A DNA stretch of 30,697 bases. It comes from a virus. The DNA lies in the UHGV virus genome UHGV-1292713, one strand, 5' to 3'. This document shows, in pieces, positions 3,952 to 7,661 of this stretch. The translations under genes and the position numbers were made by a program. Numbering within the stretch: the first letter of the stretch is position 1; each line of letters starts with the position of its first letter. The notes beneath the pieces were generated by a model that was not told where the DNA came from, made no database searches, and saw nothing but the letters and a program-made list of their open reading frames with translations.

Positions 3952-4947
3952 TTACGCCAGTACGCCTATTGCCAGCGCATGATCGATAAAACGAAATATC
4001 AGCTCCAGCTGGGAGCCATACATCTCTTCAAATGCCACGGTATCCGCATGCAGCTCGTCGTGATGCTTTCTGCACAAAGGCAACACAAAGAGGTCATGCG
4101 CTTTTGTACCCATTCCACCCTGACCATGGCCTATCAGGTGGTGGGGATCATCAGCAGGCTTTCCACAACATGCACACGGCTGTGTCTTAACCCAGCGCGT
4201 GTACTTTTCATTAACCCAGCGGCGACGTTTTGGGCGTAACATAAAAGACTCCGGCGACTCTGGCTCCACTTTCAGCGCCAGCACCTTTTTCGCTTTATCC
4301 TGGATAATGCTGGTGGCAGGAACCGAAGGAACAAGGTCACTCTCCCGGGTGACAGACGGCACAACCGGCTTCGGTAATCTCAGTGCCTTACGGGCTGCAC
4401 TTTCCGGTAAGGCATCCGCCAGGTCATTACGAACCAGCCACCAGCACAGTTCCGGCATTGTCACTACGTGACTGTCATCAAAACCGAGATCCCGACGCAC
4501 GACAGATAACACCCAGTGGGCACAGTTATCCGTTGCCATTGATTCCAGCCGTTCCGTGAACTGATCACGCAACTGGTTATCGCAGTGCCAACACAGACGA
4601 ATTGCGCCCGGCGCGTGTCGCATTGTGGTCATGTTCTCGCTGTGCCAGTCGGAATGAGGCCACTGACAGCCCTTTTCACGAAGTAACCAGCTTTCAAGAC
4701 ATTCCACGCCACCAGCACGACGGATCACTGCCTCATTGCGGAACACGGCCCGAACGGCAGGATCATCCGCCAGCGGTTGTGATGCCGCCGGAACGGCACC
4801 ACTGGCGAAAGATGAATAACGTTCCGGCTCAGGCTCCAGCAGGACACGCCCCTGCATAAACAGGGGCATCAGCTCTGAACCTGGCCTGAACAATACGATC
4901 CCCATACGCGGGGCAATTTCAGGGGTCAGTAGTGCTCTCACGGTCAC
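3952..4947 (-). CDS. DUF968-family phage protein with C-terminal Cys/His (HNH-like) motif
   Basis: 331-aa ORF; C-terminal CACCGK...HHLIGHGQGG...CRKHHDELH; position just upstream of Q is typical of lambdoid prophage DUF968 proteins. Confidence 0.55.
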   Translation of the reverse strand: MTVRALLTPEIAPRMGIVLFRPGSELMPLFMQGRVLLEPEPERYSSFASGAVPAASQPLADDPAVRAVFRNEAVIRRAGGVECLESWLLREKGCQWPHSDWHSENMTTMRHAPGAIRLCWHCDNQLRDQFTERLESMATDNCAHWVLSVVRRDLGFDDSHVVTMPELCWWLVRNDLADALPESAARKALRLPKPVVPSVTRESDLVPSVPATSIIQDKAKKVLALKVEPESPESFMLRPKRRRWVNEKYTRWVKTQPCACCGKPADDPHHLIGHGQGGMGTKAHDLFVLPLCRKHHDELHADTVAFEEMYGSQLELIFRFIDHALAIGVLA

Positions 4948-4948
4948 C

Positions 4949-5791
4949 TCAATGAACGGTATCGAGCAGCTTTAACAGCTCAGGGAATCGGGATTCGAAG
5001 AAATGCGGCTGCGTCTCGCGCGGATTTGCAGGACTGGTGATGTTCTTGCCGAACATGCAGCCTTTCGCCGTCAGCGACCAGAATTTTTTGATGTTGTTAA
5101 TCGCGGTACGGCTGTATCGTTCGCGTTGTTCAACGATCCCCAGCTTCACCATCTGGTGATATGCCTGATTAGCCGTCAGGCGGATACCATACTGTTTCAG
5201 CAGTGCACTCAGCGACAGCGTGGGGCGACTTGAGCCATCAGGCGCGTCAGCAGGAGCATCAATGGCATAGCGCGGTGCCAGATTCGGTAAGCCAACAGCC
5301 TCCTGAAGCTTCTGACAGGCTCCAAGCACTGATGACTTAGACAGGTTTAATTCCCGGCGCATAAAGTCCAGCAGGATCACGCCAGCCTGCATCTTGTCAG
5401 CAGCCTGCCCGGATAATTTTTCCGGTGTGCTGGTTACCATATCGAAAGTACGGATCACCTTCAGATGGAATGACGGGCTGATCCACATTGCATAGGCATA
5501 CACCAGTTCCTTGCAGACATACGTTCCTCCATTCCGCCCTTCTATTTTACTTACTGGTTTACTACCCAAATTTTGGGTAGTTTCATTGAATGAACCGACA
5601 CCCAAATTTTGGGTATCGATCAATTCCTGAACCAGCTCAGTAATCTGTTGGCTGGAAAGAAACTTTCCCGGCTCCTTAGTTCTGGCATTTGCACCAGATA
5701 CAACAGCAGCCCTGTGCAGATCGTTCAGGCTGTAACGACCATAAGCATCACGACGAACTTCAATACCATCAATGACCATCAGATTATTCAT
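4949..5791 (-). CDS. Phage antirepressor-like protein (KilA-N/AntA-like N-terminus, KilAC-like C-terminus)
   Basis: 280-aa ORF with a C-terminal region resembling the KilAC domain; nin-region position. Contains the palindrome triad at 5562-5614. Confidence 0.55.
   Translation of the reverse strand: MNNLMVIDGIEVRRDAYGRYSLNDLHRAAVVSGANARTKEPGKFLSSQQITELVQELIDTQNLGVGSFNETTQNLGSKPVSKIEGRNGGTYVCKELVYAYAMWISPSFHLKVIRTFDMVTSTPEKLSGQAADKMQAGVILLDFMRRELNLSKSSVLGACQKLQEAVGLPNLAPRYAIDAPADAPDGSSRPTLSLSALLKQYGIRLTANQAYHQMVKLGIVEQRERYSRTAINNIKKFWSLTAKGCMFGKNITSPANPRETQPHFFESRFPELLKLLDTVH
5562..5614. repeat. Three adjacent perfect palindromes inside the antirepressor coding sequence
   Basis: ctacccaaattttgggtag (5562-5580), ttcattgaatgaa (5582-5594), acccaaattttgggt (5600-5614); the two outer ones share the core cccaaattttggg and encode a duplicated TQNLG peptide. 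Confidence 0.6.
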
Positions 5792-5810: not shown

Positions 5811-6200
5811 TCAGGCGGCTGCACCCGCCGGTTTCTCGTACTTACTGATAGTGATCTCGACCTTCCCTTCCGGGATAACCGGTCCCCACTCCACCAGCAT
5901 TCTTTTCACCTGACTGTCGTCTTCCCACACACCCGCATGGGTCAGGGCGTCAAACAGCGCCTTGTTATAGTTGTCCAGATCGCGGATCCGGTTATCCGGA
6001 GGAAACAACACGATCTCCACTGAAGCAGGTGCCGACGTTGGTTTCGGCAGACGACGTAACTGCTCAACTATTGCTGCGCACGCCGCGCTCTGGAATTTGC
6101 GCCCCGCTGCGCTTATCAGACTCTTACCAGCAAACGCCCCTTTGTTGGGGTGTCGCCAGTACGTGTTCACGCTGGGAGGGAAAGGCAAGATCAGCTTCAT
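5811..6200 (-). CDS. rusA: Holliday junction resolvase RusA
   Basis: 129-aa ORF with the RusA-type N-terminus (LPFPPSVNTYWRH) and acidic catalytic region (DLDNYNKALFDAL); typical nin-region position. Confidence 0.85.
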   Translation of the reverse strand: MKLILPFPPSVNTYWRHPNKGAFAGKSLISAAGRKFQSAACAAIVEQLRRLPKPTSAPASVEIVLFPPDNRIRDLDNYNKALFDALTHAGVWEDDSQVKRMLVEWGPVIPEGKVEITISKYEKPAGAAA

Positions 6201-6523
6201 ACTTTCAGGCCCCTCTCATGTAACCAGTGGGCTGCACGCAGCCTGGCGTTTTCCTCACCGGCAAGCAGTGCGCGGATAATCCCGACCGCCTCGCTGTCGT
6301 CGTCCTTCACCGCGGTATGAAGAGTTATCCCCCGGGCCACGCCACGCTTTATCGTGATGACGCTTTTTTTCTCCAGTGCGCGAAGATGCTCCACCGCTGC
6401 ATTCACCGAACGGTATCCCAGCATGGTTGCCACCTCCTGATTGGTTGGCGGAAAGCCACGTTCTTGCTGGTAAGAAATCAGCATATCCAGCACCTGCTGC
6501 TGGCATTGAGTTAACGTCGTCAT
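6197..6523 (-). CDS. LexA-N-terminal-like winged-helix DNA-binding protein
   Basis: 108-aa ORF; TQCQQQVLDML...GFPPTNQEVATMLGYRSVNAAVEHLRALEKK resembles the LexA DNA-binding domain; no S24 peptidase domain. ATGA-type overlap with the neighbouring gene. Confidence 0.5.
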   Translation of the reverse strand: MTTLTQCQQQVLDMLISYQQERGFPPTNQEVATMLGYRSVNAAVEHLRALEKKSVITIKRGVARGITLHTAVKDDDSEAVGIIRALLAGEENARLRAAHWLHERGLKV

Positions 6524-7173
6524 GCCGCCATCTCCCTGACCAGTTTTTCCGCCTGCTGGCGAACCTGCGCCAGAAAGGCCTCACCACATGCCTCAAGTTC
6601 ATCGCGCCCGATGTAGCTGATTGCCGGTCCCTTCCAGGTCTTGTCGAAAACAGCAATAGCACCAGCGAAGAAAGCGCCTGTCGGCACCTGCTTCTCGTCC
6701 TTCGGGATAAACCAGGCTGGCAGTTCAAAACCAATACGCCCGCGAATAAAAGCAATATGGTCTGCATCTTCCGGCCACCACACTTCGCTGGTGGCAGCTT
6801 TGATCAGGAAAACATAGCGCCCGCCTTTATCACGCATGGCACTGGCATGCTTCATGATGTAACGCATGCCGGTGATGTATTGCCCCTCATGCTGACTGGC
6901 GCGGCTGTACGGGGGATTACCAAAGGCAGCACCTTTAAGCTCCGCAAGACGTTCTGACCAGTCATGCGCCAGCGCGTTGTCTTCCGCAGTGTAATACGCG
7001 GCGCATTTGGCGTTATCACCATCAGTAAACAGATCCAGAACAAACGGGCCAAACAGGGTGTTAATTCCCCAGAAAATGTTGTCCGGCGTGCGCCACTGAT
7101 CGCCCACTTCCTTCAGTTCATGGGCTGGTTTGTTCCGCAGCTCCACCAGCGCCTGGCAATATTTATTACTCAT
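6520..7173 (-). CDS. Phage N6-adenine DNA methyltransferase (Dam-like, NPPY motif)
   Basis: ORF-track frame 6520..7206; start assigned to the ATG at 7173 (MSNKYCQ...), which overlaps the upstream stop. Motif FGNPPYS. 217 aa. Confidence 0.75.
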   Translation of the reverse strand: MSNKYCQALVELRNKPAHELKEVGDQWRTPDNIFWGINTLFGPFVLDLFTDGDNAKCAAYYTAEDNALAHDWSERLAELKGAAFGNPPYSRASQHEGQYITGMRYIMKHASAMRDKGGRYVFLIKAATSEVWWPEDADHIAFIRGRIGFELPAWFIPKDEKQVPTGAFFAGAIAVFDKTWKGPAISYIGRDELEACGEAFLAQVRQQAEKLVREMAA

Positions 7174-7661
7174 TAAGCCCCCACGTAATTCCCTGACAGA
7201 TACCACTCTTCACCCGATGCAGCGCGCTTGCTGCTTTTCCGTAAACACCGCTCACGACGCGCAAGAAAATTGTTTCGCTCTTGCTGGGAGTGGCTTTCAC
7301 GGAATGCCGCCATCCACACCGTTGCAGCACGACGGTATAAGCCCCTGGACTCCAGTTCTTCCGCCTGGCGGGTCAGGCACAAAATCACCCGGGGATCGTT
7401 AGTGCCGACATAGAAATTGCGCACAGGTCTGGATTCACGAACTGGTTGCGGTTCCGGCTCCTGCGGTATCTCAGTCAGCCGCGGGAAATGTCTGCGTGTA
7501 TCCCCTTCACAACGGTGAGCCACACGCCCACTCTGACGTAACTTGCTTGCTGACTGCAGAACGCGCTGTCGTGAGTAACCTGCAAAAGCATCCGCAATGT
7601 CTCCGGAAGTACACCCCGGATGGGCTTCAATGAATTTCTGAACGTCATTCAAAAGACTCAT
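7173..7661 (-). CDS. PerC-like transcriptional regulator family protein
   Basis: ORF-track frame 7173..7667; C-terminal region AEELESRGLYRRAATVWMAAFRESH matches the PerC/Pch signature as I recall it. ATG at 7661 chosen; a GTG at 7667 is also possible. Confidence 0.45.
   Translation of the reverse strand: MSLLNDVQKFIEAHPGCTSGDIADAFAGYSRQRVLQSASKLRQSGRVAHRCEGDTRRHFPRLTEIPQEPEPQPVRESRPVRNFYVGTNDPRVILCLTRQAEELESRGLYRRAATVWMAAFRESHSQQERNNFLARRERCLRKSSKRAASGEEWYLSGNYVGA

Follow-up and report, generated by a model that had tools for sequence, protein, structure and literature searches.

The closest concept to the element described here is, by analogy, the BstA-aba system of prophage BTP1, in which a short DNA element that differs between variants neutralises a prophage protein that has a KilA-N-like domain and is encoded at the same locus (Owen et al. 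2021, PMC8585504). This element, aba, is 63 bp long, extends across the start codon, and requires the direct CCCGCC repeats at its ends (PMC8585504). Here, inverted repeats inside a KilA-N domain protein gene were analysed on a stretch of 30,697 nucleotides of the virus genome UHGV-1292713 (this whole 30.7-kb stretch is henceforth called the window, and all coordinates refer to it), together with the equivalent place of homologous genes, where a dyad-symmetric element is retained while the encoded peptide is not. The window resembles BstA-aba in that a KilA-N(-like) protein is combined with a short element inside its own locus, with a single site per phage in both. Moreover, aba acts as DNA and not as RNA or peptide, and in cognate pairs, with which the DNA-level signature and the variant-specific sequences of the KilA-N gene element would be compatible. 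The layout differs, as the window element is an inverted repeat well inside the open reading frame (ORF), whereas aba is start-codon-spanning with direct repeats, and the window gene is located in the early-right (nin-like) region and not beside the repressor. Membership of the window protein in the BstA family was rejected: PADLOC returned no BstA model for it (sole match PDC-S22, E 2e-8, residues 70-119), and no comparable palindrome was found in the KilA-N-like part of bstA of BTP1.

Sites inside the coding sequence of a DNA-binding protein are also present in phage lambda, where the dyad-symmetric ori iterons lie inside gene O, in its flexible-linker part, and are allele-specific among lambdoid phages, with protein and site forming one cassette. 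Lambda ori combines four iterons with an A/T-rich block, and the O protein initiates replication. KilA-N genes differ in usually carrying a single palindrome (one to three in the allele studied here), and KilA-N proteins are not known to serve as initiators. An iteron-type origin inside an initiator gene was rejected based on the single palindrome of most family members and the annotation of P1 KilA as non-essential to replication. Another lambdoid DNA-binding protein encoded in the nin region, Roi of HK022, reportedly (Clerget and Boccard, in 1996) binds inside its own gene. Inverted repeats with arms of more than 6 bp are absent from roi, and the N-terminal half of Roi is by eye unrelated to KilA-N, so that the window ORF was not regarded as a Roi homologue, nor its palindromes as the self-binding site reported for Roi. 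Perfect coding palindromes of which both arms are translated have been described in mitochondrial genes of Nematomorpha (PMC6649704). Those repeats are numerous, scattered, and up to 284 bp long (PMC6649704), in contrast to the KilA-N family, in which many phages share a single short element at a homologous position. In likeness to these repeats and to quasi-palindrome correction, symmetry could be kept by DNA-level copying rather than by the protein. No account of such a symmetric element, be it as palindrome, hairpin, or inverted repeat, was found for KilA-N or kilA genes in the literature searched, which did not cover the older P1 kilA papers, so that a prior mention is possible; the KilA-N coding palindrome is apparently an undescribed element.

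The repeats were located from the sequence and with a repeat finder and are given on the plus strand (Table 1). The initial annotation had listed three adjacent perfect palindromes of 19, 13, and 15 bp. Three adjacent repeats are real and the two shorter lengths were right, but the first repeat measures 21 nt. The arms are symmetric as claimed; all three repeats are of odd length with one unpaired central base, and hence they are inverted repeats and not strict palindromes (the latter word is used below in its looser sense). A core shared by two of them had been noted as well and turned out to be longer than given, i.e., the two strong repeats have 16 nt in common (ACCCAAATTTTGGGTA, starting at 5564 and 5600, 36 nt apart), which on the coding strand read ACC CAA AAT TTG GGT (T-Q-N-L-G). 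No third copy of this core was present in the window at up to three mismatches, where the initial annotation had proposed looking for others, and the observed count was reached by none of 100 shuffles. Core copy 1 extends imperfectly to 5593-5621 (14+1+14, three G.T mismatches), and allele Ec1120 has one mismatch only over the matching span. The repeats lie about 170-230 nt into the ORF, and the window protein contains DTQNLGVGSFNETTQNLGSKP at this stretch.

No inverted repeat of the window is longer than that with 10-bp arms; one of this kind was present in 7.5% of dinucleotide shuffles. Taken alone, 7-bp arms were at chance (6 observed vs 4.3 +/- 2.0 in shuffles) and 6-bp arms were common (26 observed vs 16.4 +/- 3.8), while three inverted repeats inside 60 nt occurred in none of 200 shuffles. 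DNA hairpins of the two cores were predicted at -6.6 to -8.0 kcal/mol on either strand, those of core copy 2 reaching -7.7 and -8.0 kcal/mol on the two strands (z about -4.7). The middle repeat yielded -1.5 kcal/mol, which was matched by 11 of 200 shuffles; by itself it is at chance level, and it recurs because it lies in the spacer of a repeated 36-bp unit.

This unit accounts for the apparent array of protein-binding sites that the initial annotation had suggested. Near-identical E. coli proteins are encoded by alleles with one core (P0032, 268 aa), two cores (the window, 280 aa), and three cores (P0001, 292 aa), and alignment of their DNA revealed differences of whole 36-nt units only, with identical flanks. 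Tandem Repeats Finder reported period 36, 2.4 copies, and 100% matches on the three-core allele L183, and the gene of mEp460 (protein 90% identical) is exactly 36 nt shorter and has a single core with a synonymous CAA to CAG change. Among 5,426 complete E. coli genomes, 2,131 carried some allele of the gene and about 146 a multi-core allele. Two units were also found in other lineages (L168, L160, L007). The stretch is an in-frame variable-number tandem repeat of one to three cores, and most members of the family have a single palindrome.

Homologues were collected from IMG/VR and from one genome per species, yielding 160 loci, 96 distinct sequences, and 40 non-redundant genes; this sample is skewed to Proteobacteria, and the whole analysis is computational. 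The best inverted repeat of the entire gene lay in the variable segment in 85 of the 96 distinct genes. For the non-redundant set, it fell within a segment making up 10% of the gene in 31 of 40 cases (binomial p 9e-24), and the remainder of each gene, other variable parts included, held nothing comparable. Outside residues 30-85, E. coli alleles of the gene hardly differ, and inside they are unrelated; at the equivalent place, every such cassette holds an inverted repeat of its own. The strongest repeat of the gene was also found at this place in P1 kilA and Acinetobacter phage 4316 (Table 1), in a P22-like ant gene, in a Vibrio phage, and in Salmonella phage Bp96115. The lineages concerned (Enterobacterales, Janthinobacterium, Xanthomonas-group bacteria, Acinetobacter phages) have KilA-N domains that are ~30-40% identical. 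Palindrome sequences and loop peptides are unrelated between lineages, and symmetry is retained; hence, the comparison with homologues that the initial annotation had proposed gave the inverse of the outcome named there as refuting, with the palindrome kept and the loop peptide not.

Table 1 Features of the window and inverted repeats in other KilA-N genes. A slash separates the two arms of a repeat; repeats of the window are given on the plus strand and core copies are numbered in reading order.
Feature	Position	Strand	Sequence	Remarks
KilA-N domain protein gene	4949-5791	minus		280 aa; from the ORF list; holds all three repeats
Strongly folding stretch	5545-5635	minus		as single strand, in either orientation
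In-frame tandem repeat	5564-5615	minus	TACCCAAAATTTGGGTGTCGGTTCATTCAATGAAAC (coding-strand unit)	period 36 nt, 1.44 units
Core copy 2	5561-5581	plus	ACTACCCAAA-T-TTTGGGTAGT	perfect inverted repeat, 10+1+10, 21 nt; coding strand ACTACCCAAA-A-TTTGGGTAGT, encodes T-T-Q-N-L-G-S
Middle weak repeat	5584-5596	plus	TTCATT-G-AATGAA	6+1+6, 13 nt; encodes S-F-N-E
Core copy 1	5600-5614	plus	ACCCAAA-T-TTTGGGT	perfect, 7+1+7, 15 nt; encodes T-Q-N-L-G
p11B/569R4			CGAGTTGCA-GATT-TGCAACTCG	inverted repeat
SfIV			ACTACGGGA-GAT-TCCCGTAGT	inverted repeat
Ec1120			GACCGATACCCAAA-A-TTTGGGTGTCGGTC	inverted repeat
Salmonella hybrid allele (L007)			CCGAGGGCGGAA/TTCCACCCTCGG	first repeat
Salmonella hybrid allele (L007)			GATACCCAAA-A-TTTGGGTATC	second repeat
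L152 (Tepidiphilus)			TGCCAAAGCAGGAA/TTCCTGCTTTGGCA	arms 14+14
L164 (Janthinobacterium)			AAACTCTGCGCC/GGCGCAGAGTTT	arms 12+12
L149			AAATACACAGA/TCTGTGTATTT	arms 11+11
L150			TTAAATACGG-AAAATC-CCGTATTTAA	10+6+10
P1 kilA			AAAGAAACTATGCA-GAAT-TGCATAGTTTCGTT	strongest repeat of the gene; same place
Acinetobacter phage 4316, KilA-N gene			ACCGAAGCGGGA-AA-TCCCGCTTCGGT	same place

In 32 unrelated elements, positions 4-11 from the centre were Watson-Crick paired in 84-97% of cases with three to four pair types per position, compared with 30-46% pairing when partners were permuted among genes; the observed pairing reached background by position 14. Inverted repeats were scored by a simple measure of our own (+1 per pair, -1.5 per mismatch), by which synonymous-codon shuffles within the gene had a mean of 5.4 compared with 8.4 observed, and in 16 of 40 genes the observed score was reached by no more than 2 of 200 shuffles. 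Changes on both sides of the stem were found in several lineages. In the Bp96115 family, GTGC...GCAC is replaced by GCTC...GAGC, i.e., UA to CG and GC to UA, with the peptide altered too (RNAalifold: 2 of 8 pairs changed on both sides), while GCAGGAA/TTCCTGC of L152 and GCCGGAA/TTCCGGC of L168 differ by synonymous double changes in Ala and Pro codons with pairing kept. Among P1-like kilA loci (L188-L267), 72 have a 14+4+14 repeat with one A.G mismatch; in five (e.g., L196) a G to T change makes this repeat perfect, and two others have single new mismatches. The triplets flanking the TQNLG core covary as well (ACT/AGT, GAT/ATC, AAC/GTT). These comparisons render a nucleotide-level constraint beyond the peptide requirement well supported. 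A symmetric element superimposed on the coding sequence, as the initial annotation had it, is therefore upheld by symmetry in dozens of homologues, by the synonymous shuffles, and by the compensatory changes.

The best explanation, which we put forward tentatively as a possible one, is that of a structure-forming cis element at DNA level, located in loop-coding DNA and acting as a structure-specific site. The two strong palindromes of the window would be duplicated copies of a family-wide dyad-symmetric DNA element of about 22-24 bp, A/T-rich in its centre and with arms that are Watson-Crick complementary at positions 4-11. In the AlphaFold model of the window protein (mean pLDDT 67; 80-89 over most of the N-terminal domain), the palindrome-encoded stretch is a low-confidence loop (pLDDT <50 at residues 65-76) between a helix (residues 48-62) and a strand (residues 80-83). 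Judging from this model, the element would always be placed in the DNA for a poorly ordered surface loop between this helix and the next beta-hairpin, and because of the poor order the protein could tolerate any peptide that the palindrome dictates. The constraint would be on intrastrand DNA pairing, either in a hairpin of single-stranded DNA or in a cruciform that forms when the DNA is supercoiled, and the element would act in cis as a structure-specific site. Most speculatively, and in analogy to BstA-aba, the KilA-N protein, a predicted DNA binder, or the replication or recombination machinery might act on it as a self-mark or an autoregulatory site, with the KilA-N protein itself being the most interesting candidate partner. 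The duplication in the window probably arose by unequal recombination between the 16-nt repeats, which would have produced the 36-bp in-frame repeat and its variable copy number.

A peptide by-product or chance origin would require that the codons for T-Q-N-L-G merely happen to be self-complementary (ACC/GGT, CAA/TTG) and that the repeat is an ordinary duplication. The core is indeed self-complementary codon by codon, repeats with 7-bp arms are expected by chance, and synonymous CAG and CTG codons in mEp460 and strain Ec10 weaken inner pairs. However, unrelated peptides at the site are also palindrome-encoded in most homologues, the synonymous shuffles fall short of the observed symmetry, the flanking triplets covary, and the position within the gene is far from random (see the binomial test above); chance or a peptide by-product is excluded. 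A hairpin in the KilA-N transcript, situated about 170-200 nt into its coding region, could control expression via RNase III processing, mRNA stability, or pausing of the ribosome or RNA polymerase, and such a reading, also offered by the initial annotation, we hold to be quite unlikely. For the window, the sense RNA of 5545-5635 folded better (-38.8 kcal/mol, z -7.5) than the antisense RNA (-29.6 kcal/mol, z -5.2), stem extensions of E. coli TQNLG alleles contain G.U pairs on the sense strand, and an RNA stem of 8-14 bp is stable. P1 KilA is lethal upon expression (PMC9948254), and KilA-type proteins can be host-toxic. The sense-RNA hairpin was indeed first suggested by the G.U mismatches in E. 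coli, and this bias was gone in the wider sample. Across 71 distinct elements with 778 stem positions, 7 G.U, 12 A.C, and 30 other mismatches were counted; G.U and A.C did not differ (p 0.36), and a model that assigns 80% of the tolerated transition mismatches to G.U was rejected (p 5e-5). Folding energies were the same for sense and antisense family-wide (-13.9 vs -14.0 kcal/mol, p 0.8), and self-complementary centres are over-represented though a loop needs none (spacer length zero in 11 of 32 elements). The centre is A/T-rich (A/T fraction 0.75 vs 0.59 in the arms, p 0.007; usual centre codon AAT, ATT, or GAT). As in terminators and structured RNAs, a G+C-richer stem is combined with an A/T-rich loop, but a U-tract and a match at the Rfam 15 gathering score are missing at the palindromes (a local E-value scan gave only unrelated microRNA and frameshift models at E >1). 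Since Watson-Crick-only pairing is equivalent on both strands, it points to DNA, either as a single-stranded-DNA hairpin or as a cruciform, and a constraint acting at the DNA level is moderately supported.

The strongest rival, in our estimate rather unlikely, is a self-maintaining coding palindrome without function, located in a structurally permissive loop: intramolecular template switching during replication would revert a mutation in one arm or copy it to the other faster than a second mutation can arise, such that the sequence drifts while symmetry stays, and owing to the hairpin the site would readily be duplicated, deleted, flipped, or recombined into mosaics. In E. coli, mutation by quasi-palindrome correction is well established, and the pairing without strand bias, the zero-length spacers of many elements, the exact flip between two Proteus species (below), the core number of 1 to 3, and the mosaic junctions beside the element all suit this explanation. 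The low-confidence loop tolerates insertions and deletions of 12 aa, compensatory changes alter amino acids freely, and about 20% of lineages carry a decayed element with no obvious harm. Harder to square with a neutral, deletion-prone sequence is its maintenance at one homologous position across domains of ~30-40% identity; the rest of each gene has nothing similar, and the composition of the centre is recurrent. Improbable in our view is an allele-specific operator, in which the palindrome would be a putative duplex site for the dimer of its own KilA-N variant, the cassette of residues about 30-85 would carry both specificity and site, and the two cores of the window would be cooperative; lambda O with its ori iterons and the cognate BstA-aba pairs follow this logic. 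Specificity regions typically have such a cassette pattern, with which the palindrome is always inherited; the element span is constant at 23.9 +/- 2.8 bp regardless of how long arms and spacer are; one third of the elements are symmetric right through the centre; each genome has one site; and KilA-N is a predicted DNA-binding domain (PMC8585504). On the other side, more than 25 unrelated arm sequences occur alongside a helix (QTxELIxEI) that is fairly well conserved, and residues 30-47 fall into only a few classes; variation as fast as that of the site is confined to the residues that it encodes. In addition, the Salmonella hybrid L007 keeps a near-perfect TQNLG palindrome beside a foreign cassette, and symmetric covariation at every arm position is a signature of base pairing and not of protein contacts.

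The element shows signs of being a focus of DNA-level rearrangement, judged from the 36-bp copy number, a flip, hybrid alleles, and mosaic junctions. In Proteus columbae and Proteus hauseri (L108/L109), the 22-nt imperfect palindrome CGCTCCTGAGATCACAGGAGCG is the exact reverse complement of CGCTCCTGTGATCTCAGGAGCG, by which an A.A mismatch becomes T.T and the peptide EIT becomes VIS; this looks like a flip of the palindrome centre. The hybrid allele L007 has two different units. Of 80 IMG/VR relatives of the P22-like Emek ant gene, 58 (L386-L443) match residues 75-296 only, which places a mosaic junction just 3' of the palindrome. The alternative N-terminal cassette of these relatives comes with its own repeat, AAGGGAGTAACTT-T-AAGTTACACCCTT, and the junction follows about 47 nt downstream of it. 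Separately, the KilA-N gene of Vibrio anguillarum phages (L181, Va_90-11-287_p41, locus 589-1508; matches H45-H51) is annotated as two overlapping CDS, and the tblastn match is likewise in two pieces. The frame break of L181 lies about 25 nt downstream of its palindrome GCTCCTCA-GATA-TGAGGAGC and may reflect a genuine or a programmed frameshift, or else an error that recurs at the hairpin.

Several other candidates were set aside. An intrinsic (Rho-independent) terminator in either direction was rejected, since a hairpin with a U-tract was lacking; no terminator-like site was found on either strand of 5545-5635, and some family members have AAA...TTT at the stem ends. A slippery-site or ribosome-hopping reading of the core was dismissed on sequence alone, the heptamer being a poor shifty site with no intervening stop codon. 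The initial annotation had further named an operator, a partition-like site, or a recombination site, functions that are not supported. No second copy or half-site above expectation was found in the window or in the complete genomes of mEp460 and Acinetobacter phage 4316, which speaks against dispersed palindromic repeats of the REP, MITE, or RPE-like type. For a core site of a site-specific recombinase, the arms are unrelated between lineages and no partner site was present in the genomes searched; only the architecture is similar.

Returning to the structure-specific DNA element, several observations weigh against it. The stem of core copy 1 in the window is lengthened by three G.U pairs on the sense strand only, perfect Watson-Crick stems are also good RNA hairpins, and the mismatch counts given above are small and were taken from elements that are not fully independent. 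Zero-length spacers are required by neither a hairpin nor a cruciform and could reflect the conserved AAT/ATT centre codon or homogenisation by template switching instead of a function. Palindromes of 21-30 bp would not necessarily extrude as cruciforms in vivo. Finally, about one fifth of the lineages, including the viable phages SfV and Stx2c-converting phages, have only a degraded repeat, so that the element is not essential. As an extension drawn by analogy, KilA-N proteins as a class (P1 KilA, the KilA-N type 'Ant' of P22-like phages) might each have a cognate DNA mark in the middle of their gene, be it a hairpin, a cruciform, or a dyad site, for self/foreign discrimination or autoregulation; this generalisation we regard as unlikely.

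In the window, the KilA-N gene is flanked by rusA (5811-6200) and a DUF968/HNH-like gene (3952-4947; Pfam labels) and is part of the nin-like region of a lambdoid prophage, and the gene order is the same in mEp460, PhiR63_1, and SfV. The Pfam KilA-N model (PF04383) matched residues 7-120 of the encoded protein (E 6.4e-21, 74.7 bits compared with a cut-off of 23.8), and the protein belongs to the PHROG family phrog_129 (E 5e-119). The initial annotation had called the gene an antirepressor. Pfam gave KilA-N only, without ANT/KilAC or Bro-N domains, NCBIfam had no match, and the match to the PHROG anti-repressor family was marginal (E 9e-4, no stretch passing by itself). As no model of ANT/KilAC, Bro-N, NCBIfam, or BstA was matched, 'antirepressor' is an unverified label. 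A Foldseek search of the model against the PDB gave nothing significant (weak Mbp1 and winged-helix matches, E >0.3), and a sequence search of the PDB found no relative of the window protein.

At the 5' end of the gene, a 10-nt tandem repeat (5760-5781, 2.3 copies), also present in L183, encodes MVIDGIEV. Upstream of rusA, which is 20 nt apart from the KilA-N gene, the minus strand of the window encodes a 108-aa protein with a LexA-like DNA-binding domain (6197-6523) and a Dam-type N6-adenine methyltransferase (6520-7206), and the order of these two genes and rusA is shared by mEp460 and PhiR63_1. Fusion-like ORFs of 401-405 aa (P0033-P0037, P0042, P0053, P0057, P0004) have both RusA and KilA-N Pfam domains, and in a 339-aa variant the C-terminal part is duplicated internally; both may be assembly or stop-loss variants. 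In APSE-2 (L011, locus 1166-1349), the Hfq-binding small RNA (sRNA) isrK and a c4-type antisense sRNA are annotated directly downstream of the KilA-N gene, and c4 and ant also adjoin kilA in the annotation of P1. The KilA-N gene of Acinetobacter phage 4316 (L186, 11824-12681) has a context different from the nin-like region of the window, as it stands alone among tail genes with a non-coding gap on each side, in a moron- or accessory-like manner. Elsewhere on the minus strand of the window, IS009 (RF02111, 21824-22022, 216 bits) and the sRNA STnc100 (RF02076, 314-502, 114 bits) were matched at the Rfam gathering score.

KilA-N is one of the commonest domains in accessory genes of phages and prophages, the roles of these proteins are almost wholly obscure, and P1 KilA has for decades been listed as 'lethal, function unknown'. 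Where distant phages keep a palindrome at one gene position and sacrifice the peptide for it, this marks a cis-acting element invisible to gene annotation. If a class-wide cognate mark were true, the BstA-aba principle would be generalised to a very large family, with the mark residing in the codons of a sacrificial loop. If the palindrome is without function, it would be an unusually clear bacterial case of a self-maintaining coding palindrome that drives hypervariability, mosaic junctions, and copy-number change. Either way, caution is advised against reading a hypervariable loop purely as the product of selection at the protein level.

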